This document shows positions 8,002-62,685 of a stretch of 64,000 nt of DNA, one piece after another. Each line of letters opens with the position of its first letter. Position 1 is the stretch's first letter. The position numbers were made by a program, and so were the translations under genes. The notes beneath the pieces are model-generated. The model did no database searches and was not told where the DNA came from. It saw nothing but the letters and a program-made list of their open reading frames with translations. Source of the DNA: a virus (lineage: Duplodnaviria > Caudoviricetes); IMG/VR virus record IMGVR_UViG_2595698293_000001, positions 192,001-256,000 of that record; one strand, given 5' to 3'.

Positions 8002-8266
8002 TTTATCAATTAATTATGATTCTTTTTGTTTAAGAGATAATACTGAGAGTATTTTTTATTCTGGTGCCACTCATTTATTTTTTGAAGATTATAAAATACC
8101 ATATGAATTGATTGAAATTAATAATATTGATTATATTCAATATCATGAAAATGATAATATTGTTTGTGTTGAAATTGATAAATTGGAAGAATTAATTAAA
8201 TTTATGAAAAAATATAATTGTAATATTGAATTAAAATCTGATTATGGTATAATTCATTTCAAGTGA
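7991..8266 (+). CDS. hypothetical protein, paralog of 21029..21475
   Basis: IPY...FxKKYxxNI shared motif. Confidence 0.65.
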   Translation: MIINLSINYDSFCLRDNTESIFYSGATHLFFEDYKIPYELIEINNIDYIQYHENDNIVCVEIDKLEELIKFMKKYNCNIELKSDYGIIHFK

Positions 8267-8805
8267 GATCCAAAATGAAGCACTGGTCATATAAAAAAAG
8301 ATTAAAGAGAAATAAATGGTATCCAAGATATTATTACATACCATGGATATCGAGTTTTGCAAGATTATCTGCTTTATCTAAAAAATGTACTATTAATAAA
8401 TTTCAAGTAAGTGATATAAGCACTAAAGGTGTATATAAAGTAAAAGTTAACCCAAATGATGAAATTGGTATTTGTTTATTGAATTATAATGAATTTAGTA
8501 TTAACTATATATCTTCTGCTGTGAAATATTTAAATATACTAAGTACTAATTATGAATTTTCAGATTTTTTTACTGGAGACCGCCGACGTATAATTTGCAC
8601 TAAATCTTACGAAAAGATTTCTAATGATATAGATTTTTCAAATTTAACTGAAGAGGAATATTTTCAGTACAGTACGTTATATGATAATCTTGATGATTTA
8701 GTTAAACTTAATACATTGTTTAAATGTATTGAAGAAAAAACCAAAGACAAATTTACATTAATGAATTTTCTACGTGGAATTCAGAAATTTGAGGCTGAAC
8801 AATGA
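8263..8805 (+). CDS. hypothetical protein of the acidic-FQxST motif family
   Basis: NLTEEEYFQYSTLYD. Confidence 0.7.
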   Translation: MRSKMKHWSYKKRLKRNKWYPRYYYIPWISSFARLSALSKKCTINKFQVSDISTKGVYKVKVNPNDEIGICLLNYNEFSINYISSAVKYLNILSTNYEFSDFFTGDRRRIICTKSYEKISNDIDFSNLTEEEYFQYSTLYDNLDDLVKLNTLFKCIEEKTKDKFTLMNFLRGIQKFEAEQ

Positions 8806-9209
8806 AAACGGTACTCGTTTATCGAGTTGAACTGTGTTTTACTGCTATCAGTATTAGTGGTATGAATTATGCTCAACAAGGACCATATACTACATATGAT
8901 GCATGGATGAGCAAAGACAATGGATATAAACCGTGTTTAGTTTCATACGATCCAATTAATCAGCCTGAACCTGAAAATGATGGATTAGAACATACATTTG
9001 CAGTAATTTATGGATTTCGTGATAAAAACCAAATGTTTGATTGGTTTTGTTGTGATATCGTCTCTTTACATTATGCTGGATTTGTGTTAAGCGTATATGA
9101 AGTACCAATTGAAGATGTAAATTATGGTAGAAAACAGTTGAATTTTTATCCAAATGAGAGTAGACTTATCTCTGTAGAATCGTTGTTGGACATTGCAGAG
9201 GATTATTAA
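8802..9209 (+). CDS. conserved phage hypothetical protein
   Basis: YRVE...GPY...PxPxxDG...YGF...QxxxWF...GF pattern. Confidence 0.75.
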   Translation: MKTVLVYRVELCFTAISISGMNYAQQGPYTTYDAWMSKDNGYKPCLVSYDPINQPEPENDGLEHTFAVIYGFRDKNQMFDWFCCDIVSLHYAGFVLSVYEVPIEDVNYGRKQLNFYPNESRLISVESLLDIAEDY

Positions 9210-9493
9210 TGAAAACTGTGACAATCAAAGAAATCCAAAATAATTGGCAAGATTTAATTGAATTTAAATATAATTTTGAAGAATACAAGAAAGATACAGC
9301 GGCAAGAAATGCTTTAAATTCTGCATTTGGCTGTAAGTTAAAAGCAGCATTCTGTACTGTATATCCTGCTGTGACAGTTGATAAAACAGGCATCGATTTT
9401 GGTGCAGCACGTATTATTTTCATTACAGAGAAAGGTGATGTAAGAATGATCTCTTCTTCTGAATGGGGTGGTATCAGTACTAAATTAAATTAA
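9209..9493 (+). CDS. hypothetical protein
   Basis: TAATG coupling, GAGG SD. Confidence 0.7.
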   Translation: MKTVTIKEIQNNWQDLIEFKYNFEEYKKDTAARNALNSAFGCKLKAAFCTVYPAVTVDKTGIDFGAARIIFITEKGDVRMISSSEWGGISTKLN

Positions 9494-9505
9494 AGGTATA
9501 TTTCC

Positions 9506-9994
9506 ATGAAACCAAATAATGTTATTGTTAATGTTCCTGAATTCCATAATGTCGTTGTGCAAGGAAAGGATTATATGACATTGGGATGTTGTGGATATGA
9601 ATTGTTTACAGTACTAAAATACCATAAACAAGATGATCGTCATCATGTTATTGTACAAAATACTGGATATCTTTGTACTATTGATAATAGTCCAAATATG
9701 CTCGCAGAGAATCCAACAACAATTCAAAAATACTTAATTGAAAATCACGGTAATGACGCTGGTTTATTCTCTTTCAGTGACATGACAGAAGAGGAAGCAA
9801 ATAGTTTTATTCCCATTGATCAAAATAAAAATGCACCTGTAGTATTTTTATACGAAGATGATGCATTCATTTATCGTGACAAACTTTGTATTCTCATCAA
9901 TGGAGAAGAAAAGTCTTTTCATGAAATCAGTGCGGATAAGAAATATATTTTTACTGTAGTACTCAATCGCATTACTGAAGTACTGATGGATTGA
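9506..9994 (+). CDS. hypothetical protein
   Basis: ORF track, AAGG SD. Confidence 0.75.
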   Translation: MKPNNVIVNVPEFHNVVVQGKDYMTLGCCGYELFTVLKYHKQDDRHHVIVQNTGYLCTIDNSPNMLAENPTTIQKYLIENHGNDAGLFSFSDMTEEEANSFIPIDQNKNAPVVFLYEDDAFIYRDKLCILINGEEKSFHEISADKKYIFTVVLNRITEVLMD

Positions 9995-19209: not shown

Positions 19210-19890
19210 ATGGTTAAATTATTAAAAACATTAGTTCTTATTACAATATTTTATATTCCATTTGCATTTGGTGATAATAATTGTAATGATAAGTTTCTTA
19301 ATTCAACTCTACCTGATGTTAAATACAATCAACAAATTTGTTATACTAAATTTGTAGTACTATACAATTACAATTATAAAATCCCAATGGTAAGTGCTGA
19401 ATACTTAACGCCAGATGATATCAACGCATCAAGTAAATTGAATAGAAAAGATGCATTCCATTCAGATAAATCCATTCCACCAGAATTTAATCAAACCGTA
19501 GCTATGTATAAAGGCACTGGATATGATAAAGGACATATGACACCAGCAGGTGATATGGATAATGCATTTGATCAATCAGAAAGTTTTAGTTTAGCAAATA
19601 TGACTCCCCAGACTAAAAAGTTAAATGAAATAGTATGGAGAGGAATCGAAGAAAAAGTACGAAATTCTATATTATCTGATGGTGCTGCCTATGTTATTAC
19701 TGGTAGTATAGTTCAGAATGGTTCAAATAGACTTAATACTATTGTCATACCAGATTATATCTATAAAGCAGTATACTTTGTTAATACAAAAAAATCCATT
19801 GTATATGTAGCAAAAAATGATAATTCAGGTGGAGAAGAGGAATTATCAGAAAAAGATTTTGAAGTGAAATATAAAATTAAACTTTTTTAA
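19210..19890 (+). CDS. exported DNA/RNA non-specific endonuclease (NucA/Serratia nuclease family)
   Basis: signal peptide; GYDKGHMTPA and NMTPQ..LN...W catalytic motifs. Confidence 0.92.
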   Translation: MVKLLKTLVLITIFYIPFAFGDNNCNDKFLNSTLPDVKYNQQICYTKFVVLYNYNYKIPMVSAEYLTPDDINASSKLNRKDAFHSDKSIPPEFNQTVAMYKGTGYDKGHMTPAGDMDNAFDQSESFSLANMTPQTKKLNEIVWRGIEEKVRNSILSDGAAYVITGSIVQNGSNRLNTIVIPDYIYKAVYFVNTKKSIVYVAKNDNSGGEEELSEKDFEVKYKIKLF

Positions 19891-25377: not shown

Positions 25378-26148
25378 ATGCATCCTCGTTTAGTTAGAAG
25401 TCAGAAAATCCAGAAAAACTTCGATTCAATGCTCGCAGTACTGGAAAGTATGCTTAAACCAAATAGCCCTATTAATAGCATGATTGTAAGTGGTGCTCCG
25501 GGTATTGGTAAAACATACTCACTCTCTAACCGACTCAATAAAGCACATTCTAATGCTGAATGTAATGTAACTACCGTTAGCGGTAAAATGACTACCCTAG
25601 CACTCTTCGAAGTACTGTACAAAAACCGGTTCAGTACTAATATCATTGTACTTGATGATATGGACAGTATTTTTGATTCAGAAGATGGTATGAATCTGCT
25701 CAAAGCAGTACTTGATACTTCAAAACGTACAGTATCATATATGTCATCTTCTAAGTACTTAAAAGATAATGGTATCCCAAGTACTTTTGATTTTTTTGGT
25801 AAAATTGTATTCATTACAAATAAAGATTTAACACGTATTGCTGCATCTAAAAGCAAACAAGCACCACATTGTCAAGCATTGATTTCTCGTTCAGTGTATA
25901 TTGATCTTGAAATTCAAAGCAAAGAAGATATCATGATTCATATCGAAAATGTTATGCTCAGTACTAACATTCTAGAAAAATACAATGTGAATCAAAATGG
26001 TAGTAACATGATTCTTAATTGGATGCTGAAACACCAGGAACGTCTACAGTCTCCATCATTACGTACACCTGTACTTATTAGTGCTCTGTATAATTCCAAT
26101 CCATATGATTGGGAAGAAATTTGCGAAAATGTTTATCTGGAGAAATAA
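25378..26148 (+). CDS. AAA+ family ATPase
   Basis: Walker A GAPGIGKT, Walker B IIVLDDMD, sensor-1 FITN, Arg-finger ALISR; AGGAG SD. Confidence 0.9.
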   Translation: MHPRLVRSQKIQKNFDSMLAVLESMLKPNSPINSMIVSGAPGIGKTYSLSNRLNKAHSNAECNVTTVSGKMTTLALFEVLYKNRFSTNIIVLDDMDSIFDSEDGMNLLKAVLDTSKRTVSYMSSSKYLKDNGIPSTFDFFGKIVFITNKDLTRIAASKSKQAPHCQALISRSVYIDLEIQSKEDIMIHIENVMLSTNILEKYNVNQNGSNMILNWMLKHQERLQSPSLRTPVLISALYNSNPYDWEEICENVYLEK

Positions 26149-26462
26149 TGAAATACAAATGTACGGTGTATAAAGAAGGAATTGTATTCATTGAAGTCTA
26201 TGTAGATGATGATATTTGGTTTGAAGTTGATGAATGTTTTGATACAAATGTATACGTATCAAAAAATGGATATATCTATGAATATAATTTAAATAACGAT
26301 TTTGGTTCAATGCAAGATGATGAATTATTTCAATTGAGTACTGTAAGTCCGATTCCTTTTGACTTAAAAATCATTAGAGAAGCCCATAAACAATTCAGTA
26401 CTATTATAAAAGAAAATTCATCATTATTGTATCATTATATATTAGTAACAGAGGACGAATAA
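26148..26462 (+). CDS. acidic-FQxST motif family protein, coupled to the AAA ATPase gene
   Basis: QDDELFQLSTV; TAATG coupling. Confidence 0.7.
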   Translation: MKYKCTVYKEGIVFIEVYVDDDIWFEVDECFDTNVYVSKNGYIYEYNLNNDFGSMQDDELFQLSTVSPIPFDLKIIREAHKQFSTIIKENSSLLYHYILVTEDE

Positions 26463-39871: not shown

Positions 39872-39944
39872 TTAATAATTGATTAGCCATCATTAAAGCT
39901 GGTGGCTAATAGAATATTAATAACCTGTTAGGAGAATAATCTTT

Positions 39945-42238: not shown

Positions 42239-42324
42239 GTGTTGACAACATAATTCAGTACTGTATAATGTATTACATCAAAGGGGATACATAGTGTATC
42301 CCTGAATTAACAGGAGTAACCCAT

Positions 42325-42573: not shown

Positions 42574-42656
42574 GTACTTGACAACTGGTTTCAGTACTGT
42601 ATAATGTTTATCAAAGGGGATACATAGTGTATCCCTGATTTAAAGGAGATTCTAAA

Positions 42657-42845
42657 ATGGCAGTAGTATACGGTTATATCAGCAACTATGATTTGACTTT
42701 CCGGGAAGTCGGTACTGAATTAGGTGCAAAGAATGCAGCAACGCGAAACGGCTCGACCCGCGTAGGATATCGCAGTAGTATTAATAATATGTATATTGAA
42801 ACGCATATCCGCAACGATAAAAAGGGTAAATGGGAAAAAGTGTAA
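42657..42845 (+). CDS. early hypothetical protein
   Basis: promoter, leader hairpin, AGGAG; GAKNAATR motif. Confidence 0.8.
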   Translation: MAVVYGYISNYDLTFREVGTELGAKNAATRNGSTRVGYRSSINNMYIETHIRNDKKGKWEKV

Positions 42846-43235
42846 TCTAATTCCATTTACAAATCTTTACAAAACCAGTACTTGATTTAATTATTGAGTA
42901 CTGGTATTATATATTCATTGGCAGATAAGCCGCAGCCCACAGGGTGCCGAGGTGTATCTATAGTTTATTGAATTGAAGTACAGAAAAATATTTCTTGCAT
43001 AATTCATTTCTTATGTTATAATAGTAATCACATAAATTAATTGGAGTGAACAAAAATGTTATTAGATTGGCTCAATACTTTATCCCCTGCTGCTGGCCGA
43101 CGCTGGGCTATCGGTTCGTCGGTTGCCATCGTTGTAGGCGTCATTGTACTTTTAGTGATGATTTTCTAAAAAGTACTTGCTTTAATGATCCAGTACTGTA
43201 TAATGTACTTATACCAAATAACAGGAGTAAAACCG

Positions 43236-43553
43236 ATGAAAGATGTAACTTTACCAGTAGTTCAAACTAACTTTGAAAACCAATTCCTGGCCGAAGTATT
43301 CAAGATTGATAATGGCGTTGTATCAATCAATTACGGTTTCAATAGCGGCGGTTATGAAAAATTCATTTATTTCGTTACTGCCGATGGTGGATGCCTGGCA
43401 ATTGATACGGTACTGAATGAATTCAGTAAAGTAGATTTTAATGATGATAATGATCCTCAGTGGTATATTGTCGGCTATGACGTGAACTATGAAGATGAAG
43501 ATCTTTATGATGATCATACTAATCAAAAAATTGAATCCGCTTATGGGGAATAA
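43236..43553 (+). CDS. acidic conserved early phage protein (GGY...DG...W.IVG.DVN.ED..L...IESAYGE)
   Basis: AGGAG SD; start reassigned. Confidence 0.8.
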   Translation: MKDVTLPVVQTNFENQFLAEVFKIDNGVVSINYGFNSGGYEKFIYFVTADGGCLAIDTVLNEFSKVDFNDDNDPQWYIVGYDVNYEDEDLYDDHTNQKIESAYGE

Positions 43554-44725
43554 AAATGATCATCGTACTATCAGAGAAAGAAAAGAAATTAATTCTTTCA
43601 GTACTGAAAGAATATCCCAGAAATATGCGGGAGCCGTTTGAAACAAATGGTGAATTCGAAGAGCATTTAAACGATATCGATTTATTGATATCCAAGATTG
43701 AATCACAATAGTGATGTACTGTAAAACGTCCTGTAATCGATTATGGGACGTTTTAAGGAATAGCACTATGATTTATTCAGTACTGTAAAAAAACGCTTGA
43801 AAATTGATTCCAGTACTGTATAGCTGCATTACTGTTTAATGTGGGGTATTAAAATGAAATATGTTATGGTAGATGAAATTACTAGCACGAAACCCAGTGA
43901 TGATTATAACAAATGGCTTGCCCGTAGCAATAAATGTATTATTCCGCACGATGACCGCGTATATCATTGTTATGAATGCGGGGAGATTATACCAAATGTA
44001 CTGGATCATTCAATCTTTACATATGATGATCTTAATTACGCTCATTCAAGATGCCTTGATAAAAAATAGTTGACAGTATCATATCAGTACTGTATAATGC
44101 TTTACATAGGAAAATTATTCTCCCCATTATCAGGAGTAAAGAATATGTTTTACATCGGTACTGTTAAAAAAAATTCAAATGTAATTGAAGCATCATTGAT
44201 TTGTACTAACAATGAAGTGGCTGGCTATGATTATGCTCAAGAACGATTCATGAAACACTATACCGGTGATGATTCAGTGTCATTCGATTTTGAACGTATC
44301 GGTGATGGTGTTACAATTATGAAATTTGAAGATCTCCCTGAAATCGATTTTGATTTTGTCGTTACACTGTAAAAAAAGTACTTGCATAATTCTTTCAGTA
44401 CTGTATACTGTACTTATACCAAACAAAAGCAAATGGAATCAGTACTGATTCCCTGTAAAGGAGATAGACCAATGTCAGATCGTATCACTCGCAAAATGGT
44501 AGCAGATAAAGTTGCTGGGCTGAATCTTGCTATTGACCGTCGTGGATTGCCTGAAAAATATCAGGTAGTACTGGAAGATGGCAAATTCAATATTGAATTA
44601 CAGCCGTCTCATGTTTATACTAAACCAACGACAGTACAAGGGAATTTAAGTACACGTGAAGCATATCTTTACCTCAAAGGTATGTTTGAGATCCTTCTCA
44701 ATAATGTACCATATAAAGATTAAAG

Positions 44726-44756
44726 AAAAAGGGGAGACAATGAGTCTCCCTTTTTT
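44726..44756. terminator. bidirectional intrinsic terminator
   Basis: AAAAAGGGGAGAC-aatga-GTCTCCCTTTTTT. Confidence 0.85.
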
Positions 44757-44949
44757 GTATTCAGTACTAAATTATATAGATACATTTATGCACCCTGTGG
44801 GTTAGTAGCTTGTTCTGCTTTATGTAGTAATTATATGATAAAGCTGGTGGCTTGTCAACACTTATTTTAAAATAAAAAGTACTGAATAGTACTTGCAAAA
44901 AGTATTCAGTACTGTATAATGTTTGTATTGAGATTAAGGAGTTCTTACT

Positions 44950-45507
44950 ATGTTAATCAAAATGTATCACGGTTCTAATAATTTTGATCATCGCTGGGGA
45001 TATCTGGGTGGAAAACCTGGCAATTTTCATATGGGTTTTGGACTATATCTAACTAACTCTTATCGCTGGGCTGATAATTATGGGCGACGTCATTATGAGT
45101 TAGATTTAGATATTTGTAGTACTGGTGCCGCACATAATGTATGGATTCCTACTAAACACTTTATGGAATTCATAAGAGTATATTGTACTAAAAAGTTTTA
45201 TACAATGTGCTGTAAAGAATTTAAAGACCGTGAATCTTTGAATGTAGAACGCGTTGAATTGCTTATTATCAATATGGAAAGGCACGTTACGAAAATCGCT
45301 AAACCATTTGCTGAATTCGTCGCTGCCTGGGGTTGTACGCATAGCATTGAAATATCCGGTAACTATGGTGGTGTTTGCGTGCGGCTTTATGATTTCAGTA
45401 TTATAAAGAATTGTATCATAAGCCAGGAAACGCAGGATTTTTATTATCCAGATGAATTGACAAGATATCCTCAAAAAACTTGTATTAATGATTCAGTACT
45501 GATATAA
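44950..45507 (+). CDS. ADP-ribosyltransferase-fold-like protein
   Basis: MYHGS...GFGLYLT...AxxYG motif typical of H-Y-type ARTs. Confidence 0.6.
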   Translation: MLIKMYHGSNNFDHRWGYLGGKPGNFHMGFGLYLTNSYRWADNYGRRHYELDLDICSTGAAHNVWIPTKHFMEFIRVYCTKKFYTMCCKEFKDRESLNVERVELLIINMERHVTKIAKPFAEFVAAWGCTHSIEISGNYGGVCVRLYDFSIIKNCIISQETQDFYYPDELTRYPQKTCINDSVLI

Positions 45508-46987
45508 TGAATTAAATTAATCAGGAGGAATTATCTTAAATGAATAACCGTCAATTGATGATCGATGCATCTCGTTTTCGTTCAAAAGAAGAAAAGAGAA
45601 GTTGCATTAAATGGGTTTTGTCAACTTTCATTATTGGATTACTTATTGTTGCTTTTGTTTATAGTTAGTACTTGACAATATAATCCAGTACTGTATAATG
45701 TTTATCAAAGGGAATGAATTATTCATTCCCGATTAATCAAAGGAGTTTTGCCATGATCTATATTATCAAAGTATCCCCGACCGTAGGTAAATCAGAAGTT
45801 GTAGCTGTTATCACTTCCCTGGAAGCGAAAGATCTTCATACCCCGTTTAATGTATGGGTGGAGGATAATTTCGGACAATTCAGTACTGCTGAATATATCG
45901 AACAATTCGCTGTCCCGGACACTGGTAAAATCAAAGTGGATCGTGTCCTGGATTTTGATAACAGTAATTACTTTTAAAAACGTTTGACAACTGATTTCAG
46001 TACTGTATAATGTTTATCAAAGGGAATGAATTATTCATTCCCGATTAATCAAAGGGGTTTATCATGAAAGAGTATATCTTTGAAGTAACTTTCACATTTG
46101 GCCCGCACCAACTGATCCGGTCTTCTGGCTACAACCGCGAACAAGCATTCAGCAACCTTCGCCGTATGTACCCCAATGTCGTGACCTGGGTCAAGTGTGA
46201 AGAAGCTTAAAATAATTAGTCAGTACTATTGACAACGGGTGATAGTACTGCTATAATTATTTTAACTTATACGGAATGGAGTTAAAACAAATGTTCAGTG
46301 TCAGCAAACAAGGCGACAAATTTCTGGTTCAATACCATCATTTTGATCTGGTATACACTCAGCCAGATTGTGTATTCAGTACTCAGGAAGGTGCCGAAAA
46401 GCACAAAAAAGCCTTGATCGAAAATAGCAACAGTGGTACATTAGATTTCATCCAACAGTACTGGAATGAATCTAAGCTGGTGGACGGTTATTCCAACACA
46501 GTTTATTATGTAGGTATCACTGATTAATCGGGAGTACTGTTAATGTATATGCCAATTATCATACCGTTAGCAGTACTGTTAATCGCCGCCGTTATCTGCG
46601 AACAATATCATTTGTTAGGAATGTAAACTATGATTCAATGTGAATTGTCAGTACTGATCACGCTGTTCTATATGTTGGGGCAAAAGAAACAAGATATTTC
46701 TGGTGATAATGCATTATTGTATCAATCATTAGACCAATGGCAACGATCTGAATTAAGCAATGCATGGGCGAAAGGTTACAACGATAGTACTGCAAAATAA
46801 TTTAAAAAAGGGGTTGACTTACGCCAGCCCTTTTGTTATCATTAGTACATAGCAAGAACAATGCTCAAGCCCACAGGGTGCGGAGGTGTATCTATAGTTT
46901 ATGTTGGTCTGAATCATTAATTTTCTTGACAATTGGTTTAGTACTGGATATAATAGCCGCCATTGAATACAGGAGGATTTTAAAAAA

Positions 46988-47254
46988 ATGGCCTATCATA
47001 CACCACATAGACATTTCATTGATAAACGCGGTATGGCTTTTAAAGCAATGAGTGACAATCGTAACACACAAATGTACTTTAAAGATATGACGTTAGAAGA
47101 AGCTATTGAAGCTGTAAGGAATGATCGTAAGCTTTCCAAGAAAGTTGCATCAGTACTTAATGCTTTTTGGTTTGAACGTACTACCAACAAAGAATACAAA
47201 GAAAAGATGATTGCACTTGGTAAAGTAGTAAGAGAAGAAAAATTATATCTTTAA
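46988..47254 (+). CDS. basic early hypothetical protein
   Basis: AGGAGG SD, own promoter. Confidence 0.75.
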   Translation: MAYHTPHRHFIDKRGMAFKAMSDNRNTQMYFKDMTLEEAIEAVRNDRKLSKKVASVLNAFWFERTTNKEYKEKMIALGKVVREEKLYL

Positions 47255-47505
47255 GTACTTGACTATGTGATTCAGTACTGCTATTATATATTCATACCAA
47301 TTAAGGAGATAGACCAAATGAAACAAGCTAAATTTAATTCAGAAATTAAAGCAGCAAAAGCACACAAAGTACAGTTAGTAGTACTGGTTATTGTATCAAT
47401 CTTTTTGCTGTGCAACATCGGCTAAAATAATTATTACAGTACTATTGACAACCAACGATAGTACTGGTATAATTACTTTACCAAATAAAAAAGGAGTAAC
47501 CAAAA

Positions 47506-47781
47506 ATGCGGATTAAACTTACCAGTGATGAGATTCATTCAGTACTGACTACCAATATGCAGGACTGGAAAAAGTACGCTGATATCGAAGAAGTCCAGGA
47601 ACTCAATGATGATTTGAGTGTAGATGAAATTATCACTATTTGCTCATCTCAATTCTTTGATGATATCAATGATGAAGAGCAAGATGTATTTGATATCATG
47701 GAAAAACATTTTATTGCGTATGATGTTTTCCCGTATACTCGCCAGGCTTATATTCTTATTCACAACATTTATAACAAATAA
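47506..47781 (+). CDS. acidic early protein, possible DNA mimic
   Basis: about 20 D/E versus 7 K/R in 91 aa; AGGAG SD. Confidence 0.6.
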   Translation: MRIKLTSDEIHSVLTTNMQDWKKYADIEEVQELNDDLSVDEIITICSSQFFDDINDEEQDVFDIMEKHFIAYDVFPYTRQAYILIHNIYNK

Positions 47782-47793
47782 GGAATAATAATC

Positions 47794-48159
47794 ATGGAAA
47801 AAGAATTTAAAATCAAATACAATATCAGTACCGATGGCGGTTTTGAAGTACCAGAAGAAGATCAAGAACGTCTTAATGATGTTATTATGATTGACATTTC
47901 AAATAAAATCATTCAAGGCTACCGCGAAGGTGAATTGTGTGAATCGTTGATGGATCAATTCGATGAAGTGGAAACGTTTTATCGTGGCTGGTGGAGTATC
48001 GAAGAAGTTCACAAAGTACACGAATACCGTGTATTCTGGATTAATGGCGTTAATGATATCGAAGATATCATTGTAAAAGAAAGTAGTGAATCCGCCGCCA
48101 TTCAGTACTTTAAAGATCACTACCCCAACAAACGTTATCACCATTTAGAAAAAATTTAA
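47794..48159 (+). CDS. acidic early hypothetical protein
   Basis: GYREGEL...YRGWW motif. Confidence 0.75.
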   Translation: MEKEFKIKYNISTDGGFEVPEEDQERLNDVIMIDISNKIIQGYREGELCESLMDQFDEVETFYRGWWSIEEVHKVHEYRVFWINGVNDIEDIIVKESSESAAIQYFKDHYPNKRYHHLEKI

Positions 48160-48246
48160 AAAGTAATTGACAACATAATCCAGTACTGATATATTAATAC
48201 GCATAGGGGCAAACAACTTGCCCCACTAAACAAAAGGAACTACCAA

Positions 48247-48603
48247 ATGATTACTAAATTCTACGCTACTCGTGAACAGGCTCGGATCGTCGCTCGTGAA
48301 GAAGGCGAAACCTTCAAAGATATGGGTAAAGATTCCCCTGCTGGTCAACGCTGGGCAGTACTGTTCCGCGAGGTCAAAGACCTGGTAGAAAACGCTAAAG
48401 CCGTTGAAATGAACGTTCCCACCAAAGAAGATAAAGAACTGACTGATGCCCTCGCTGCTGCATTCTCCGCGATGGATAAAGCCGCAGCGGTAGTACTGAA
48501 AGTACCGGAATTTGTTACCAGAAAAGTGCATTCAGTACTACAAAATAAATTCAACGGTAAACAGGTTCAAGTGTTTACTAAACGTAAAATTCCGGTCATG
48601 TAA
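48247..48603 (+). CDS. highly expressed early hypothetical protein
   Basis: optimised codons; FYATREQAR...KDMG...GQRWAV. Confidence 0.8.
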   Translation: MITKFYATREQARIVAREEGETFKDMGKDSPAGQRWAVLFREVKDLVENAKAVEMNVPTKEDKELTDALAAAFSAMDKAAAVVLKVPEFVTRKVHSVLQNKFNGKQVQVFTKRKIPVM

Positions 48604-48707
48604 AATCTGACTATTACAGTACTAACAAAGGGGCTTCAATGCCCCTTTAAACGTCCTGTAAGCCATTCTAAGAGGTTTTACATGAAAAGGTACAACTACA
48701 CAAAGGA

Positions 48708-48929
48708 GTGATGAAAGTTCATTATAATGCCCCGCAACGCATTATAGATAGAGCCATTGAACTAGCCAATCAATACCTAGCTGGTGGATTAACTCCCAGG
48801 AAGTTAAGCAACGGGAAGTTATATGTAATCAACGTTGATACTAATAATCGTATAGTAATCAAAGGTGAAAGCATATCACTGTATGAACATCAGCAGTATA
48901 ACAAGAAAGTAAAAAATATTAGTAGATAA
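48708..48929 (+). CDS. small basic protein, weakly ParE/RelE-like
   Basis: P..I..RA...Y...RKL...YVINV...RI...HQQYNK pattern; weak. Confidence 0.4.
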   Translation: MMKVHYNAPQRIIDRAIELANQYLAGGLTPRKLSNGKLYVINVDTNNRIVIKGESISLYEHQQYNKKVKNISR

Positions 48930-49008
48930 GTGTTGACAACTGATTTCAGTACTGCCATAATGTATACATACAAGGCAATACCGCCTAATAACATAGGAGT
49001 AACTGAAA

Positions 49009-49431
49009 ATGAAAAAATCCACTAAAATTATCTTAGGTGTATTTGTTGTTCCGGCAGTAGCCTTTTTTACTTGTGCTATGATTTTTGGTGATGCTTCTCG
49101 GGTTGCCGCAAAAATCGAAAAAGAAAAACAAGTCCAGGTGGAAGTCAAGAAAGAAGAAAAGAAAAATTATAACACTGTATGGGAAGCAATTTGCCATACC
49201 AGTAATGGTAAAAGGATCTCCATCCTTACAGCGATGAATAATGGAAAATCAATCGTCGGAAACGAATATATGGAAGTTACTTCCAGTACTGGTAAAGAAT
49301 TTGTAATGACGAACTATAATAACAATAACGTTGCAATTGTTACACAAGATTTTAAAGGTAATGCAGTACTTGAATATCATACGGAATATGAAGTAATATT
49401 TGCAAAATGCACATTTGAATGGGGTGCATAA
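49009..49431 (+). CDS. membrane-anchored periplasmic hypothetical protein
   Basis: N-terminal TM; CHTSNG...AKC resembles the CxSNDG family. Confidence 0.7.
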   Translation: MKKSTKIILGVFVVPAVAFFTCAMIFGDASRVAAKIEKEKQVQVEVKKEEKKNYNTVWEAICHTSNGKRISILTAMNNGKSIVGNEYMEVTSSTGKEFVMTNYNNNNVAIVTQDFKGNAVLEYHTEYEVIFAKCTFEWGA

Positions 49432-49614
49432 AAATAAACATAATAAACAAAAAAGGGGGTTGACACAGGTCAGCCCTTTTGCTATTATTAATATCAAGAA
49501 AACAAGCTAACCCACAGGGTGCATAAATGTATCTATAATTTATTAAAGAATTTTAGTACTTGACAACGTAGTACAGCAGTACTAAAATATCTACATACAA
49601 AGGAGATTACCAAA

Positions 49615-50199
49615 ATGAACAAACATCTTAAAGTACTGAATAAATGTAAATCCAATACCGAAATGTTACTGTACTGTTACAAAAATTTAATTAAACTCGG
49701 GAGAGGTTCATCCAGAACAGTATTTTTGTTAACAAAAAACAAAGTACTGAAAGTTGCTCATAACCATATTGGCAACCAACAGAATACAGCAGAAATCACT
49801 GCATGGTTGTATATTGATTATGACCGCTATTATAATAAACGCTTTTTCGCTAAAGTGTTCCCTGATATGTCGCATTTTAAAGATGTATACATAGTACAGG
49901 AGTACTGCGACAATATCAGTACTAAAGAAGCGAAGCCATACATTGAACATTACTTGACACCTAGCACTATTGAAAATGAGCGTGCTAAACGCTTCCACAC
50001 GGCGTTAAGAGATGTAGACAATACCCTTAACTATAAAACGCTGGTGGACTTAAACGTGGGCAATATAGGCCGTTCTGTAAGGGGTGCAATAAAACTCCGT
50101 GATTATGGATTATCTGAACATATTGCTAAACAGTATAGAGAAGCCCGCGACCAGTACCACCAACTCAAAAGTATTAGTAACATAAGTATTGATTTATAA
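49615..50199 (+). CDS. protein-kinase-like (Ser/Thr kinase fold) protein
   Basis: G-loop LGRGSSRTVF, VLKVA, alphaC Glu (NTAE), catalytic DLNVGNIG, DYG. Confidence 0.8.
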   Translation: MNKHLKVLNKCKSNTEMLLYCYKNLIKLGRGSSRTVFLLTKNKVLKVAHNHIGNQQNTAEITAWLYIDYDRYYNKRFFAKVFPDMSHFKDVYIVQEYCDNISTKEAKPYIEHYLTPSTIENERAKRFHTALRDVDNTLNYKTLVDLNVGNIGRSVRGAIKLRDYGLSEHIAKQYREARDQYHQLKSISNISIDL

Positions 50200-50264
50200 T
50201 TTCAGTACTGCTATAGTACTTTCACAGGGGAGATAATCTCCCCAATCACAAAGGAGATTTTACC

Positions 50265-52384
50265 ATGAGTACTAAACCATTTGTAACCACTCGTTCTAAT
50301 CTGACTGAGATCTATGTACATGGTGGATATGAGGAAACGTATGTCACTGGTATTATGGTAGAATTCAATCAGGGTTATCGGTTTATGTTGGTAGATTCAG
50401 AAATCTATCATACACAACAAGATAAACATGGTTATGTCAATAAGTACTCCACCGATGAAGTACTGAAACGCCTGGATAACAAAATTAAACAAATTCAAAA
50501 ACATCTTGACAACGGCGGAAAACTTAATCATTTACTTTGGGATAGCTTAGATCCCTGCTACGGTTCCGATGCATATGGTAAAAGCCGTGACACTGCAATG
50601 AAAGTACTTAAAGATTATTTCTTTTAAGTATTGACAAGTAATTCCAGTACTGGCATAATGTATTTCAAGGAGGTAATAACACCTCCTACCTTCAAGGAGT
50701 AGTGACTATGAATACTAAAGAAATGCTTTGTGAGTTCGCCAGTAACAATCTTGGCAACGCCGCGTTCATTGATGGTTTTAATTATGTAGCAACTCGTGAT
50801 CAAGAAGGTAAAGTATTCGTTAAAGATCGTATGGGCTTTTCTATCCAGGTTCAATCCGGTACTGCAAGCCATATCGACGGCATGAATGTATGGGCTGCTA
50901 CTATCCCCGGTGATGGAACATATCATTTCCGTATCGTAAAATAATTTAAAAAGTACTGGACAATACAATCCAGTACTGTATAATGTTTTGCATAGGGAGA
51001 GATAATCTCTCCCACTAAAGGAGAATACCGAAAATGATTACTGGTCACATTACTAACTATGCAAAACGCCGCGATGTAGAAATAGAAGTACTGAAAGCAG
51101 GCGAAGTTGACGATGACGCTCAGGTATGGTTCTACACCGCAGACAATGATTGTGAACCAGTACTGATGTACCTGATTAATAATGATGGTTCTCTTACTTA
51201 TCGTAGCAAACTGATGAAGTCCCTGGAAGATATGCCAGCACATATCAATAATAAAGAAGTACTGAAACGCGTAATCTGCTACATCTCAGACCAGCACAAA
51301 GCGGATATGATGTAATCTTTACAAATATGGGGGTTGACTAATGTCAGCCCTTTTGGTATTATATATTCAATCCAGCGAAATGGTCTAACCCTCAAGGGTG
51401 CCGAGATGTATCTATAGTTTAATGATTTTGAAGTACTGAAAAATAATTATAAAAAGTACTTGCTAGACGTGAATTCTTTTAAGAATTCACTTGTATTTGT
51501 GATTCAGTACTGCCATAATATATCCATACAAGGGAAACATAGTGTTTCCCGATAATCCACAGCAATAGTGCTGGTGGATGAACCAGGAGTAATAACCATG
51601 CAAGACAAATCAATTCATGTTCAAGTAGTTTCAAGCCGTGGCTATGACGATGTAGTACTGGATATCATGGTTAAAGATCTGCGGGACTATGCAATCATTG
51701 CACGTCATATCATGGTTAACTCCATTTGTATCAGTACTGGTGCTGATATGGAAGAAAACCGCTTACATATAGAAGAACATCTATACAAAGCACGCATGAA
51801 TGACAGCAGTGTATTCATCATTGAAGGTGCCGAGGGTAAAGAGTATACTGTATACCTTCGCCAGTACCAGGAAGTAGAAAAAGAAGAAGATTAATTTATA
51901 AAAAGTACTTGCTTTAATAGTTCAGTACTGTATACTGTTTATCAAGGGGAAGCAATAGTGCCTCCCCACTCATAGGAGATACACCATGTTTACTATCACT
52001 TCTCGACAGGATGTTCTGTACGTTGCTAAAACTTTTGGTCTGGAAGCACTCGATCATATCATTCGCAACAGTACAATGAATGCTGATGCAAATGGGATTA
52101 TCATTGATACTCGGGCATGGGCCGCCAATGAAGTCATTGCCATCGAGCATGTTAACGATGGTAACAATGTCTATGAAGTGGATGCATGTTTCAATGCTGT
52201 TAATGTAGCAGGTATGTATATCACTGGTATTGATGATATCACTATCATCCGCTCCGGTATGGGTAACTTCTCCATGCCTTTACGTTCAGCAATGGAAAGA
52301 AAAGAGATCAGTACAGAACAATGTGCAAATATAATCAATGAGATTACCGCACGTAATGAAGCTGCTGCTATCCTTTACCCGTAG
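50265..52384 (+). other. five monocistronic early hypothetical CDSs (50265, 50702, 51034, 51598, 51986)
   Basis: each has an AGTACT promoter, leader hairpin and AGGAG SD. Confidence 0.8.
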
Positions 52385-53632: not shown

Positions 53633-54031
53633 ATGGCAAAGAAAAAGAAAAAGATTGACAGAACATTACGGCATCCTAAGTACAGAGTTCAATATCATGA
53701 TAGTGAACAGATAGAAGTAGATTTGGGCGGTGGAAGTAGGTTAAAATATGCTAACAATGCATATGTGAATAATAAATTTGTATTAACATTGTATAAAAAT
53801 TTCAAGTATCATTCAAGTAATGATCTTCTTGATTATACATTTATTAGTACTGAAGAAGAATTATTTCAGCATTCTTTGTTGTGTGCAGTTGATATTGATT
53901 TTTCGGTACTGGTACAGTTACAGAAAGCTTTAAAGCATCAAATGTATCAATATATTTTTCCAAATAAACTGGAAATGATTAATATGAAGAATAGATATGT
54001 TTTGGATATTACTGGTACTGAAATTGTTTAA
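53633..54031 (+). CDS. acidic-FQ motif family protein
   Basis: STEEELFQHSLL. Confidence 0.7.
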   Translation: MAKKKKKIDRTLRHPKYRVQYHDSEQIEVDLGGGSRLKYANNAYVNNKFVLTLYKNFKYHSSNDLLDYTFISTEEELFQHSLLCAVDIDFSVLVQLQKALKHQMYQYIFPNKLEMINMKNRYVLDITGTEIV

Positions 54032-54055
54032 TAACAATATAACTAATGAGCCAAA

Positions 54056-54583
54056 ATGAAAATTAATATCAAAGATGATAGTGAATTAAGTACATTAGTA
54101 CAAGATATATGTACTGTATACAATAAGATGAAATCTGTAACTAAAGATAAAGGAAGGATAGATGTATTACGCGGTGAATACAGATTTAATCATATATTGA
54201 GTAAAAATTCATCTGTACTGCAAACTTGCATTAGTAATGTTCAATACAATATCATTGAATACGGTTCTTTCTTTTCTGATTACTGCTATGATAATATGAT
54301 AAAGATTGATAGTACTGGTAATATTTTGGATGTTTATTTAGCACCGAGGGGTGCAGTATTAGAAATTATTAAAATTGGTGATATTAATAACACATTGGAA
54401 CACATTGAATTGCCTCCAAGGTCTACTGAGATGACAGAGGAATATGTATTTCAATTAAGTACAGTACATGAATATTTTTCTGCTATTATAATGATCACAG
54501 AGTTAAAGAAAAGAATTAATCGCAAGATGCGTGTTCATGTACCTGATTTCAGTACTGAATTGATCAAGTACATTGAGATATAA
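54056..54583 (+). CDS. acidic-FQxST motif family protein
   Basis: MTEEYVFQLSTVHE. Confidence 0.75.
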   Translation: MKINIKDDSELSTLVQDICTVYNKMKSVTKDKGRIDVLRGEYRFNHILSKNSSVLQTCISNVQYNIIEYGSFFSDYCYDNMIKIDSTGNILDVYLAPRGAVLEIIKIGDINNTLEHIELPPRSTEMTEEYVFQLSTVHEYFSAIIMITELKKRINRKMRVHVPDFSTELIKYIEI

Positions 54584-54662: not shown

Positions 54663-55307
54663 ATGACTACAAGTGAATTATCTGAACTGTTTGGGATTTT
54701 ATCAGTACTGATGCCTAAGATTGAAAGTAATCCACATCATTTATTGAGTCCAAAAGCACAATCTATTTTTAGTATTGAAAAGCGAGTGGATCTGGAATAC
54801 CATGAATACCATGCTTATTTCAAAGCTATTGAAAATGGTGAGATCATACCAAAAGTATATCATGTTAGTATTAATGAATTGAGTTCTTACACTCGCTGCG
54901 AAGTTACTCGTCGTGGAAATTATTATAATACTACTTATACTTGTGAACGAGTATTAACAGTGAAAGAAAATTCACATGATTTTAATGTAATTAATCTTAC
55001 TGATGATGGTAAAGTGAAAGAAGTTATGTATCATCCTACATCAGAAGAAATTATGATCAACAAAGGTGGTGTTTGGGGAAGTCGACATAAAATTAAAATT
55101 CCTAATTACAAAGACTATGATGATGTTGATGCTTACATGTTTCAGTTAAGTACTGTAAAGGATTTTAGTACTGAAGAAGAAAATATTATGAAGTTCTTTA
55201 TGTTCTTACAGAAGTTTAAAAGTTCACGAAAGCGTTTGCCTAAATTTAGTACAAACATTGAACTGATTTCATTATCTAAACTGCTAGAGTTATATGACCA
55301 AAATTGA
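54663..55307 (+). CDS. acidic-FQxST motif family protein
   Basis: DVDAYMFQLSTVKD. Confidence 0.75.
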   Translation: MTTSELSELFGILSVLMPKIESNPHHLLSPKAQSIFSIEKRVDLEYHEYHAYFKAIENGEIIPKVYHVSINELSSYTRCEVTRRGNYYNTTYTCERVLTVKENSHDFNVINLTDDGKVKEVMYHPTSEEIMINKGGVWGSRHKIKIPNYKDYDDVDAYMFQLSTVKDFSTEEENIMKFFMFLQKFKSSRKRLPKFSTNIELISLSKLLELYDQN

Positions 55308-58781: not shown

Positions 58782-59210
58782 ATGAAAACATTAGAAGAAT
58801 TAATTAGAATAAGTAAAAATATCATTTATATTAACAATGTATTCAGTACTGGAAAAGGTCATCTTATTGTTGATGATGTTAGATACTTTTATTCTGAGTC
58901 TGCTCATATATGGTACAGTTCATTTTATGTTCGTGATTTTGAACCCGAGTGGGATTGTATTTCTTATTCGAGGGGTTTAAGTACAGTCACAACTATTTCT
59001 TCTATGAAGGAACATACTCACACACTCGATTGTTCAGAATTTGATTTAAGTGAAGAGATGCTTTTTCAGTACAGTACCATGTATTCCAGTCTTGAGCTGG
59101 AAGCTATATTCGTTAAAGTGTACCTGGATAAATTCACTGATATAGATGAATTTTGTATAAATCTCTCACAATACCCTTCGTATTGCGAAAAACTTGGATT
59201 AATACCATGA
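58782..59210 (+). CDS. acidic-FQxST motif family protein
   Basis: LSEEMLFQYSTMY. Confidence 0.75.
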   Translation: MKTLEELIRISKNIIYINNVFSTGKGHLIVDDVRYFYSESAHIWYSSFYVRDFEPEWDCISYSRGLSTVTTISSMKEHTHTLDCSEFDLSEEMLFQYSTMYSSLELEAIFVKVYLDKFTDIDEFCINLSQYPSYCEKLGLIP

Positions 59211-59623
59211 GTTACAGAAGTTCATTATTTTTTGCACAAAAGGTATACTATACCGTTCAGTGCTTTTATAATTCAGAATTTGATAATACAGTACTAAAAA
59301 AGACAGGAAATGACAGTGTATTTGATTACTACGATTATCAGAATTTATTTTTTGGTTATCCGGTCTTCAATACTACACAGATGGATTGTCATATTTCTCT
59401 TGATTTTTCTTTTATGACATTCAATTCATATAGTACAGACTATATGTCACTCGATTCTGTGGTTAGATTAAATTCTGATAACATAGTGTTAATTCATAAT
59501 AGCGAGGATTATGATTTCTTTAGTAATTCTTATACTGAAAAAGAATTGTTTGTTTGTACTGTATTTTCGTACCTAATTCTTAATAAATGCAAACCATTCT
59601 ATCTGGATTTGAGTATAATTTAA
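59207..59623 (+). CDS. hypothetical protein, paralog of 60245..60640
   Basis: SLFxAxKxYxTxQxFYNS...CxPFYxDL. Confidence 0.75.
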   Translation: MSYRSSLFFAQKVYYTVQCFYNSEFDNTVLKKTGNDSVFDYYDYQNLFFGYPVFNTTQMDCHISLDFSFMTFNSYSTDYMSLDSVVRLNSDNIVLIHNSEDYDFFSNSYTEKELFVCTVFSYLILNKCKPFYLDLSII

Positions 59624-59642
59624 AGAGGGGATTTTCATTATC

Positions 59643-60245
59643 ATGCTAGAGAATTTTTATTCAAATTTAATGAAAGCTTTCCCTACAAAAGAGGAAGTTG
59701 GATTAGGCCATGTATCAGATTTGGATTATGATATTTACGTTGCTATGGTAATTGTTGGTCAAGCAAAAAGTGTTCATGAGGTTCATGAACGATGGACAAA
59801 ACTGGCGAATGAAAGAAATTATACAAATGAATTGAAATCTGAACCTGAAATACAAGGTAGATTGTTTATTGTAAAAAATACAAGAACATTAGAATTAATT
59901 TTGATACCTACTAAAGAAACATTTAATGAGATATCAAAAACCGAAGAATATCTTTTGAATAATCATGGAATTTCTTATAAATCAAAAGACTGGATTATTG
60001 ATACAGTACTGTACGTTTCTCGCAAAGATAGAGGATTAACAAGAGTACATGATTTATATTCTTCTGTTCTAAAAATTGTTACACCAAATGAATTTGGAAT
60101 ATTCAATTCAGAACAATATGATATAATCATGAACTGTATTAATGATAAAATATCAAGATGTTATAATCGTTGTGTATATCCAAATGGATATCATAGTAAT
60201 AAAAATTTTCACTACAAATACAATGAAATATGGAATAAAGTATAA
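59643..60245 (+). CDS. hypothetical protein
   Basis: GAGG SD. Confidence 0.75.
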   Translation: MLENFYSNLMKAFPTKEEVGLGHVSDLDYDIYVAMVIVGQAKSVHEVHERWTKLANERNYTNELKSEPEIQGRLFIVKNTRTLELILIPTKETFNEISKTEEYLLNNHGISYKSKDWIIDTVLYVSRKDRGLTRVHDLYSSVLKIVTPNEFGIFNSEQYDIIMNCINDKISRCYNRCVYPNGYHSNKNFHYKYNEIWNKV

Positions 60246-60640
60246 TGAACAACAACGAATCACTTTTTCTTGCTAAAAAGATATATAACACTGCACAACT
60301 TTTTTATAATTCAAGTTTCAACTGTACTGGATTTAAGAGAAGTTTTGTGGGGCTGGATTATGAATACAAATTTTCCAATTTAATTGTTTTCAGTACTGAA
60401 AATACATATGGCTGTTTCTTTTCTTTTAAAAAAAATATTATAATTTTTGATAATGAATTCGCCGGTATAATTGAATGTGAATACGAAGATGGAACACGTA
60501 ATTATCTTTCCCGTATAATGAATTTACATCAACAGTGCCAACCTGTGAATACAAAGGATAATATGTCAGTACTGACAATTTTTTCGTACTTAGCCCAGAT
60601 GAAGTGTCAACCATTCTATATGGATTTACGCATAATTTAG
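60245..60640 (+). CDS. hypothetical protein
   Basis: paralog of 59207. Confidence 0.75.
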   Translation: MNNNESLFLAKKIYNTAQLFYNSSFNCTGFKRSFVGLDYEYKFSNLIVFSTENTYGCFFSFKKNIIIFDNEFAGIIECEYEDGTRNYLSRIMNLHQQCQPVNTKDNMSVLTIFSYLAQMKCQPFYMDLRII

Positions 60641-60652
60641 GGGGTATATTTT

Positions 60653-62685
60653 GTGTTAAAAATTCACTGTCGTAACGGTATATTTTTTTGTAACACTACA
60701 ATACATAACGGAAAGTTGATTTATCATAAAAGTGAGGATTCTTTTTATTATACCACCCATGTGAATTCTAAAAAAATGCACAAAATTATTGATTATTCAG
60801 GATTACAAGAGGATGAACTTTTCCAGATGCATTTAGTATATGATAAAGTACTTAATTTGGATTTTTACACTTTAACATATATTCAGACCAAAATGCGAGA
60901 ATTATCAAAAATTTATACTGCTGATTTTAAGATTATAACACCTGAAATATAAGATGAATAAAAATATAAGAACCAATAATATTATGTGGTGCACTGTATA
61001 TAAACTGATTTATACTACTTATGCTCTTATACGATTGGTTAGCAAAAATAATACAAAAATCGATGTTTATTTCTATAATGACGGTACCAAAGAACACTAC
61101 TTAACAGAGGGTAATGATATATATGAAATTCATGATTTATGCTCTTTGAGCACAGAAGAACATTTCCAATTACTCACAGTATGGGATTATAAAACAGATA
61201 TTGATTTTGTTATTTCTGCACATAAACGCATAGAGGAACTTAAAAAGGATGAGTTTTTCAATCGTGTCGATACAGTGATTGAATATTAAAAGAGCGTACA
61301 AAAAAATGATTTATGATAAAAATGTTGAGTATATAACCCAGTTCATAGTACTATCATACACCAGATATGGCAGTTCTGGTTCCAGGTATATTGATAGTAT
61401 ACTTAAACAACATATTGAGTTTAATGTTATCAATAACAAGAAAGGTTAATATAGAAATGGGTTTTGATACAAGAGAAGGTGCACTCTTTTATGCAAATCA
61501 AATATGTAATTTAGTTTTGTATTACAAAAGTAATGAAAATTTATTAGATGAATATAAATGTTTGTATTCTAAAGTCGATGATGTATTAAGAATTTCTTTA
61601 GAAATAGAACACAAAAACCCATTCCCTGAATCAATTATTGATTTTCAAGAAAAATATATTAATTATATTCCAGGTAAAGAATGTGAATTAATTCTTTCCG
61701 ATGTATTTGGCCATAGTATCAAAATCGATCCCAGTGTTCTAAATGAAGAATTGAATACCAGTACAGAAGAAGGTTATTTCCAGAAGAGTACTATATACAA
61801 TTCTGATGAATTGTTCTGCATTATTCTTTTTGAAAATATAGTGCGTAAAATTCCTTTTCAATTCTACATTGATTTAGAAACAATTAATTACCTAATAAAA
61901 GAGAAAAATTATGAGATATAAAATATACAAAAGCGACCTCCTTGTTGTAGCTGAATACATTTGTGATGATATGTTCAATATGTTCAAAAATGAACATGAT
62001 TTTATTTTAAATTTAAGTACTAAAAAATTTAAGTTGAACTATTATGGTTCATATGAATTATCTGAACACTATTCAATTGATTTAAATGATTGTACTCAGA
62101 TGCAGGACGATGAATTGTTTCAATACTCTTTAATTTTTTATTTTAATTTATTAAGTTTAAAGGATATTGTATCGCTTCAAAAAGAAATGCTTACTATACA
62201 AGATGATACATATGGCACTAAAGAAATTAATTTTATTGACTTTTGAATGTATACGTGATAATATACGTGATAATATATGTGGTATGGGTGATACAAAACC
62301 ATAAAAAGAGGAATATATAGTGCAGACAAATCAAGAAATACAAATAAAATTAAAAATTAATAATTATTATAATAATACAGTTAGTGCTTCATATAATGAA
62401 GAAGTTTTGTACGAAATAAATTATTCCATGAATGATTCCATTTTTACATTTCGTGAGTACAATGGTATCACTTTAATAAGATCTTATATAATTCCAGTTA
62501 TTGATTATACCGAAATGCAAGATGATGAATTGTTTCAGTACTCTTTAATATACGATCTGGAACATGTTATTCCCTTTGACTCTATGGTTGAATTGCAGGG
62601 TATTATGAAATCACGTACACAACTACAAGGTGAGATTGAATACACATTTATCACAATGAATAAGAAGAATTATTATGTACAATGA
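60653..62685 (+). other. run of five acidic-FQ motif family CDSs (60653, 60954, 61457, 61911, 62320)
   Basis: QEDELFQMHLVYD, STEEHFQLLTVWD, TEEGYFQKSTIYN, QDDELFQYSLIF, QDDELFQYSLIYD. Confidence 0.8.

Follow-up and report, generated by a model that had tools for sequence, protein, structure and literature searches.

We report that twelve small open reading frames (ORFs) in a 64,000-nucleotide stretch of a jumbo phage genome (hereafter the window; bases 192001-256000 of the 345,809-bp IMG/VR virus record IMGVR_UViG_2595698293_000001) share a short acidic-F-Q element, the FQ motif, and that they are probably diverged copies of one lineage-specific, single-fold multigene family of early, non-virion, diversified binders, a reading to which we give a probability of roughly 0.7. 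An initial annotation of this DNA had taken the element for a constant docking tag on unrelated proteins, that is, for a library of substrate adaptors built on the logic of F-box proteins. Coordinates refer to the window unless marked as genome coordinates, which refer to the whole 345.8-kb record. The window has a G+C content of ~30% and nearly all of its long ORFs lie on the plus strand. By DNA similarity the closest named relatives are the Klebsiella jumbo phages K64-1, Muenster, KP13-7 and RCIP0023 (genus Alcyoneusvirus), with Escherichia coli phages of the 121Q/PBECO4 type and one Erwinia phage more distant.

All twelve ORFs listed in the initial annotation exist and carry [ST]-E-E-x-x-F-Q-x-S-[TL]-[VIL], and the motif does lie near the C-terminus, 41-55 residues before the stop in every case. 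The proteins are small (99-214 amino acids, aa), each combines the acidic pair and FQ with x-S-[TL]-[VILM], and the distance of the motif from the C-terminus is nearly fixed. Chance does not produce such a set: the six-frame translation contains FQ.[SLH][TL][VILM] 15 times, whereas 100 dinucleotide shuffles average 2.4 (maximum 7), and the shuffle mean falls to 0.03 once the acidic pair is required in front of the same core. Likewise, 135 plus-strand ORFs contain the motif 11 times, compared with 0.14 (maximum 2) after shuffling of residues within each ORF. The looser pattern FQ.[SLH][TL] hits two chance sites besides the members, at 11090 (plus strand) and 12181 (minus strand). The members in the window, including two degenerate ones, are as follows (HMM, hidden Markov model; F codon, position at which the codon for the F of the motif begins).

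8263-8805, plus strand: member, 180 aa from GTG 8263 or 176 aa from ATG 8275; LTEEEYFQYSTLYD, F codon 8662; HMM E 4.6e-13; PHROG cross-matches extend ~60 residues upstream of the motif.
26148-26462, plus strand: short-class member, 104 aa; MQDDELFQLSTV, F codon 26328; ATG overlaps the stop of the ATPase gene.
31418-32020, plus strand: member, 200 aa, with a long basic N-terminal part; LTEEEIFQLSTVLD, F codon 31895; PHROG matches over residues 66-176.
53633-54031, plus strand: member, 132 aa (149 aa from ATG 53582); STEEELFQHSLL, F codon 53864; phrog_13866, 3.5e-7; first family member past the inferred terminal-repeat boundary.
54056-54583, plus strand: member, 175 aa; MTEEYVFQLSTV, F codon 54449; phrog_18780.
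54663-55307, plus strand: member, 214 aa; DDVDAYMFQLSTV, F codon 55140; phrog_18780; sigma-70-like promoter at 54590.
58782-59210, plus strand: long-class member, 142 aa; LSEEMLFQYSTM, F codon 59064; N-terminal part recruited by a profile of N-termini only.
59207-59623, plus strand: degenerate member, FF at the motif position and no FQ; N-terminal domain and C-terminal helix/strand kept; phrog_37680.
60245-60640, plus strand: degenerate member, motif wholly lost; N-terminal domain and C-terminal helix/strand kept; phrog_37680.
60653-60952, plus strand: short-class member, 99 aa from GTG; LQEDELFQMHLVYD, F codon 60821; phrog_13866, 1.4e-8.
60954-61289, plus strand: short-class member, 111 aa; LSTEEHFQLLTV, F codon 61164; found by the HMM.
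61457-61921, plus strand: long-class member, 154 aa, modelled; TSTEEGYFQKSTIY, F codon 61778; motif in helix 104-111.
61911-62246, plus strand: short-class member, 111 aa; MQDDELFQYSLIF, F codon 62118; phrog_13866 over residues 1-99.
62320-62685, plus strand: short-class member, 121 aa from GTG, modelled; MQDDELFQYSLIYD, F codon 62533; motif in helix 68-77.

The whole-proteome search proposed in the initial annotation enlarged the observation considerably. An HMM of the C-terminal region, run against the 2858 six-frame ORFs of the genome at E ≤ 1e-3, recovered 43 members, and inside the window these were exactly the twelve already listed. All 43 lie on the plus strand: 1 at 64.8 kb, 10 at 159-183 kb, 12 in the window and 20 at 257-276 kb (genome coordinates). 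F and Q are invariant in 43/43, which is partly built in, as the seed was chosen with a regular expression requiring [FM]Q; S is kept in 40/43, and the two preceding positions are each acidic in 39/43. Seven further members are degenerate or borderline, three with FQ and four without. Five borderline ORFs were assigned to the family (three keep FQ, two have FM), and the two degenerate window ORFs (59207-59623 and 60245-60640) belong to it by their N-terminal and tail profiles. The genes are closely packed, 19 of the 43 standing directly behind another member and 28 overlapping the upstream stop or starting within 10 nt of it. Inside the tandem array at genome 269683-270848 there are also two ORFs (203 and 187 aa) that the family profile does not detect; they may be further degenerate members.

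Predicted structures place the motif within a domain. For the 154-aa member, AlphaFold (66-row alignment) produced a model that has a mean predicted local distance difference test score (pLDDT) of 87.3 and a predicted template modelling score (pTM) of 0.82, and shows a helix at residues 6-25, six strands at 35-90, the motif-bearing helix 104-111 (EEGYFQKS), a helix at 116-131, a strand at 136-139 and a helix at 140-149. In the model of the 121-aa member (26 rows; pLDDT 67.8, pTM 0.60), five strands at 6-59 are followed by helix 68-77 with the motif (DDELFQYSLI), a helix at 86-98 and a strand at 107-113. Long and short model thus have the same core order of beta-sheet, short FQ helix, long helix and beta-strand, and in both the motif falls within or borders on the blocks of highest confidence. 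Read on these models, T/S-E-E would open the short helix, F-Q-x-S would close it, and T/L-hydrophobic-Y-D would turn into the next helix. Being a helix that falls within or next to the segment predicted with most confidence, the motif is not a linear tag; neither a separable module nor a disordered peptide is what the models show, but a helix in a high-pLDDT segment of one compact domain. The proposal of an adaptor tag on unrelated proteins is thus not supported as stated, the two modelled proteins being single compact predicted domains with a shared core topology. What survives of the adaptor logic is a constant element with a variable remainder in many copies, and what does not is the separable, F-box-like docking tag. 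The initial annotation had named as its own refutation that the motif be the buried core of one common fold, and a helix inside a shared predicted domain comes close to this: the models suggest that it belongs to the fold core and may be buried there. The amphipathic helix said to follow the motif is present in both models, but its hydrophobic moment (0.40) hardly differs from that of shuffled tails (0.38). Foldseek matches in BFVD reached template modelling scores of up to 0.75 at 16-27% identity, and all were uncharacterised proteins of the same phage clade (phages RaK2, 121Q, SP27, PBECO4, slurp01 and GAP32, Yersinia phage fHe-Yen9, Serratia phage BF and Erwinia phage pEa_SNUABM_47). One shared fold is seen in the two modelled members and would extend to the other ten in the window.

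Homology beyond the motif points the same way where it can be tested. That the N-terminal parts differ, as had been claimed, holds for pairwise comparison (no significant phmmer pair among the 43 members), a method too insensitive to decide relatedness, but not at the level of profiles and folds in the testable subsets. Profiles built from the N-termini of ortholog groups only aligned in hhalign with 94% probability over 83 columns and 79% over 76 columns, and an iterative search with N-termini only recruited 33 of 118, five of them from the genome studied here; in profiles, the N-terminus alone links five genome members and one pair. Among 1790 decoy ORFs, the N-terminal iteration and the per-member runs took up only the two FQ-less neighbours and a single further ORF. 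After removal of the motif, a tail-only search recruited 43 of 122 tails and the same two FQ-less ORFs, and no other decoy. In the short class, the alignment with phrog_13866 takes in almost the entire protein. The 43 members are scattered over 32 PHROGs, all of 'unknown function' (PHROGs 12674, 9317, 13866, 15629, 22855, 18780 and 26 others), and these groups match one another; the database thus distributes the family over 32 or more groups without treating it as a unit. No Pfam family was matched by more than one of the 43, and the PDB gave neither a sequence match in the profile search nor a fold match. PD-(D/E)xK or RecB-like QxxxY nucleases, Nudix proteins, sigma region 4 or LuxR-type helix-turn-helix proteins and SUKH immunity proteins were considered as candidate families and ruled out on sequence grounds, because the motif contains all the conserved residues and neither Pfam nor fold searches gave a match.

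Two observations from public sequencing runs touch individual members. In a wastewater run (X4), a single contig has 739 other letters in place of window 54020-54428, which covers the N-terminal two thirds of the 54056-54583 member, and rejoins about seven codons before the FQ motif. This may be an N-terminal replacement, or divergence past the 90% threshold together with an insertion. A loose contig end at 61783 looked like a chimera of two paralogs joined at the motif; it was ruled out as cross-mapping of the other paralog, since the two share 20 identical bases and CAG at this point.

The family appears to be confined to one clade of jumbo phages. With the C-terminal profile, 79 of 1.84 billion cluster representatives matched at E ≤ 1e-3, 77 of them with a convincing FQ motif; all 79 are 61-249 aa long and match in their C-terminal part. 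Longer or fused forms were looked for separately and not found, which is weak evidence. Among whole records, K64-1 gave 47 matches, coliphage UB 54 and Erwinia phage Hallingskeid 52 at E ≤ 0.01, and a 348-kb IMG/VR contig (G001) gave 47, phAPEC6 45 and Cronobacter phage GAP32 9 at E ≤ 0.001, counts that are not exact copy numbers; Pseudomonas phage PA5oct and T4 had none at E ≤ 0.001. One 20-kb stretch of G001 holds 30 members, with FQ in all 30, and the tandem same-strand arrays are limited to this one clade. A homolog search with full-length alignments returned five matches from a word index ill-suited to the family, a related-locus search with the short-class alignment found one IMG/VR locus, and the ESM Atlas gave no usable match. 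The two FQ-less window ORFs have orthologs in Muenster that are 86-91% identical. Between genera orthology is mostly lost, which fits old duplications followed by birth and death of copies.

The surroundings of the genes suggest an early, non-structural region. There are 83 near-consensus sigma-70 promoters (TTGACA-N16-18-TATAAT, at most one mismatch) on the plus strand and 15 on the minus strand, and they are concentrated at genome 160-280 kb, the region of the family. Because the family lies among these promoters, we infer that its genes are probably expressed early from the host RNA polymerase. The available text of the paper on phage CBB proposes that the equivalent region consists of early genes behind RpoD-like promoters (PMC5259590). 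By collinearity, the PhageTerm terminal repeat annotated in Muenster corresponds to window ~33.5-53.5 kb, and the first family cluster starts directly after it. In Muenster a protein kinase and a YafQ-like ribonuclease toxin lie within the repeat and an ADP-ribosyltransferase behind the array (Muenster 8436-9952, 40204-40462); toxin, kinase and ADP-ribosyltransferase near the family make up a gene set typical of host takeover. The 45 phAPEC6 matches are gp011c, ten genes between gp054c and gp134c, and gp379c-gp466c, and none of them is among the 62 virion proteins of Table 1 in PMC7247149.

The picture we favour is of a family with about 50 copies per genome, or 8-10% of genes, in RaK2/K64-1-like, 121Q/PBECO4-like and related Erwinia jumbo phages, each member probably a small (~100-215 aa) single-domain alpha/beta protein. 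The shared core would comprise a beta-meander sheet, the short helix with (T/S)-E-E-x-x-F-Q-x-S, a turn (T/L-hydrophobic-Y-D), a longer hydrophobic helix and a final beta-strand, to which the long class would add an N-terminal and a C-terminal helix. Such a family would have grown by tandem duplication and diverged until, between pairs, only the helix-turn keystone remained recognisable. Transcribed early by host RNA polymerase, as the promoters suggest, its products would act through their variable surfaces as a diversified repertoire of binders on host targets, in takeover or counter-defence, and the FQ segment would mainly hold the fold together. The degenerate members carry M or F in place of Q, which argues for a structural reading of that residue. 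We take diversified host-directed binding to be the likeliest role; the chief alternative is that the FQ faces of all members bind one common partner.

Several points weigh against this picture. Only 2 of ~50 members were modelled, the short-class model with modest confidence, and in profiles N-terminal homology is undetectable for most members. The enrichment of profile scores over decoys is small (median 2.25 versus 0.8 bits, p=0.0008), and for the members at 8263, 31418 and 54663 the common fold is read from weak PHROG alignments alone. Both acidic positions are kept in ~91-93% of very divergent paralogs, next to an invariant Q; conservation of this degree exceeds the usual need of helix capping and would also fit an exposed functional face. 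Neither an arms-race signature nor clear acceleration within the genus was found in the comparison with Muenster, where orthologs of 30 family ORFs had a median identity of 96.1% and those of 68 neighbours one of 97.4% (p=0.067). The public runs in which this DNA occurs are wastewater or environmental metagenomes and metatranscriptomes, stored as contigs, and are uninformative on expression; stretches without read cover in them carry no meaning.

Other explanations of the conserved element can be set against the same data. The initial annotation had allowed that the motif might be a by-product of AGTAC-rich DNA, and a shared peptide might also arise from a repeated DNA element. GTAC, AGTAC and AGTACT are indeed strongly over-represented genome-wide, and CAG encodes the Q of the motif in 63% of cases against a genome average of 27%. 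Yet every conserved residue shows synonymous variation: across the 43 members F is TTT in 35 and TTC in 8, Q is CAG in 27 and CAA in 16, and the conserved S is AGT in 22, TCA in 10, AGC in 4 and TCT in 4, thus from both serine codon families. The residue after S is Thr in 26 members and Leu, without AGTAC, in 17; moreover, no motif is out of frame or departs from the fixed distance to the stop, and 43 motifs cannot account for 1485 AGTAC sites. Because synonymous codons vary freely, selection acts on the FQ motif at the protein level and not on AGTAC-rich DNA, and the codon data effectively refute a DNA-level artefact. A site for protease cleavage or a degron is extremely improbable. E-x-x-Y-F-Q presumably resembles the sites of Q-specific viral proteases, as L-x-E does those of the T4 prohead protease, and there is a ClpP-like gene in the window, but the motif lies inside a folded domain at its best-predicted place, P1' is Y or L instead of S or G, and family members are not virion proteins in phAPEC6. 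Invariant polar residues (E-E, Q and S) within nine positions could also form a small catalytic, metal-binding or nucleotide-binding site. We consider this very unlikely, since no other position anywhere in the sheet is conserved, neither a recurrent Pfam family nor a PDB sequence or fold match supports it, and some 50 paralogous enzymes with free-drifting remainders would be unusual.

The remaining explanations give the motif an exposed face. Were the conserved helix-turn a common interface for homo- or hetero-oligomers, paralogs co-transcribed in arrays, as many members are, could form combinatorial assemblies, and a conserved surface amid a variable remainder is typical of dimer interfaces shared among paralogs; the monomer models are nevertheless compact with high pTM, and we regard this as quite unlikely. 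Somewhat less doubtful, though still unlikely, is that an exposed acidic/F-Q/S helix face docks all paralogs on one phage or host machine, for which a protease or ATPase, RNA polymerase and the sliding clamp are candidates, while the variable sheet brings clients or blocks sites. The conservation of E-E, F, Q and S is extreme for an otherwise free-drifting family, and four degenerate members have lost Q and yet persist as ORFs, so that the fold may not strictly need it. Q-[YL]-S-[TL]-[LIV], too, presumably resembles bacterial clamp-binding peptides of the QL[SD]LF type, but it sits in an internal helix and not at a flexible terminus, which speaks against a clamp-binding or PIP-like peptide. 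More generally, a helical motif in a confidently predicted compact domain is unlike known docking peptides, and where Q is replaced in degenerate copies the substitute is the hydrophobic M or F. The two machines suggested by the initial annotation fare no better. The start of the 26148 member does overlap the stop of an AAA-like ATPase gene (TAATG), but this coupling is not special, because 28/43 members are equally tight on their upstream ORF, and it amounts to ordinary gene packing. A ClpP-like protease is indeed encoded nearby (ORF 30054-30686, Pfam CLP_protease 7e-23), but its best PHROG is 'head maturation protease'. Both proposed hubs rest on proximity only. A tentative variant, to which we would give slightly more weight, is that the acidic-F-Q-S face is an exposed epitope by which ~50 co-expressed early proteins plug into one host or phage hub or into each other, their hypervariable sheets recognising different targets as a phage-encoded combinatorial library of adaptors or decoys. 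Such a library would parallel, in a bacterial virus, the terminal immune-evasion gene families of pox- and asfarviruses.

As for known systems, the nearest are the Asteriusvirus coliphages 121Q, PBECO4, UB and phAPEC6, which have the same C-terminal profile, the FQ motif and tandem arrays of small ORFs, with Foldseek matches between models; they differ in that the host here is Klebsiella and that the copies do not form one array but are dispersed over ~115 kb as several clusters flanking the inferred terminal repeat. Large eukaryotic DNA viruses have terminal multigene families such as MGF110/360/505 of African swine fever virus and the Bcl-2-like and host-range families of poxviruses. The FQ family is like these in its tens of old, divergent, small-fold paralogs, near the termini, non-structural, in early regions and variable in copy number, and unlike them in belonging to a bacterial virus, in its fold and in the lack of detected accelerated divergence within the genus. 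F-box adaptors likewise have one invariant element in many otherwise different small proteins, but the F-box is a self-standing domain, joined to unrelated domains and with a known partner, whereas the FQ element is ~12 residues inside one compact predicted fold whose variable parts are homologous where testable. A lineage-specific expansion of ~35 zinc-ribbon proteins has been described in Bacillus phage G (Iyer et al. 2021, PMC7824862), similarly jumbo-phage-specific, with one small domain in tens of copies; that domain is a recognisable zinc ribbon with a plausible nucleic-acid-binding role, whereas the FQ family has no recognisable domain. The available parts of that paper do not mention the FQ family. 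Paralogy as such has been noted in this group: nearly 10% of gene products are paralogues according to the available text of the RaK2 paper (PMC3622015), and 22 paralogous ORFs are counted in the corresponding text for CBB (PMC5259590). For the coliphage family, what Hua et al. state includes neither motif nor fold, distribution or function. Our literature search found no description of the motif, fold or function of the FQ family.

About one gene in ten of these 350-kb phages belongs to one family that has neither a database name nor a match to a solved fold. Jumbo phages of this group that infect Klebsiella and E. coli are under study for therapy, and this family, to which no role has been assigned, is their largest. 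With a single profile, ~45-55 'hypothetical proteins' per genome could be annotated as belonging together. Should the members prove to be host-directed binders, they would constitute a large natural library of small stable scaffolds against bacterial targets, possibly including defence systems, and would give bacterial viruses a counterpart to the terminal multigene families of large eukaryotic viruses.

Turning to the neighbouring sequence, the AAA-like ATPase gene (25378-26148) has its likely start at ATG 25378, behind a promoter and the Shine-Dalgarno sequence AAGGAG; a start at TTG 25321 was rejected as too long, this TTG being the -35 box of the promoter. The protein has weak AAA matches only, and no PDB relative. 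Its promoter is one copy of a class with the spacer (A/G)GTCA(A/G/T)CCCTTTTTGC between TTGAC and TATAAT, found at 18243, 19900, 25321, 49460 and 54590. Another class is stereotyped in the stretch 33000-51000 (genome 225-243 kb; G+C higher, 35-37%), where ~20 near-consensus sigma-70 promoters have the form TTGACAAC..(C)CAGTACTG(G/T)TATAAT with a spacer of 16-17, each preceding a small ORF; collinearity with Muenster identifies this stretch as the terminal repeat. Phages usually avoid palindromes, and the palindrome AGTACT shows the opposite here, being ~8-fold over-represented genome-wide (937 occurrences, where 116 are expected at zero order). C and G are its preferred flanks, which yields CAGTACTG, and it occurs in all three codon phases and in non-coding DNA; the richness in GTAC words is a separate genome-wide DNA feature, distinct from the FQ motif. 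Elsewhere among the small ORFs of the window are a DNA/RNA non-specific endonuclease at 19210-19890 (Pfam Endonuclease_NS, 7.9e-37) and a DUF1190 protein at 29440-30036 (8.2e-26).

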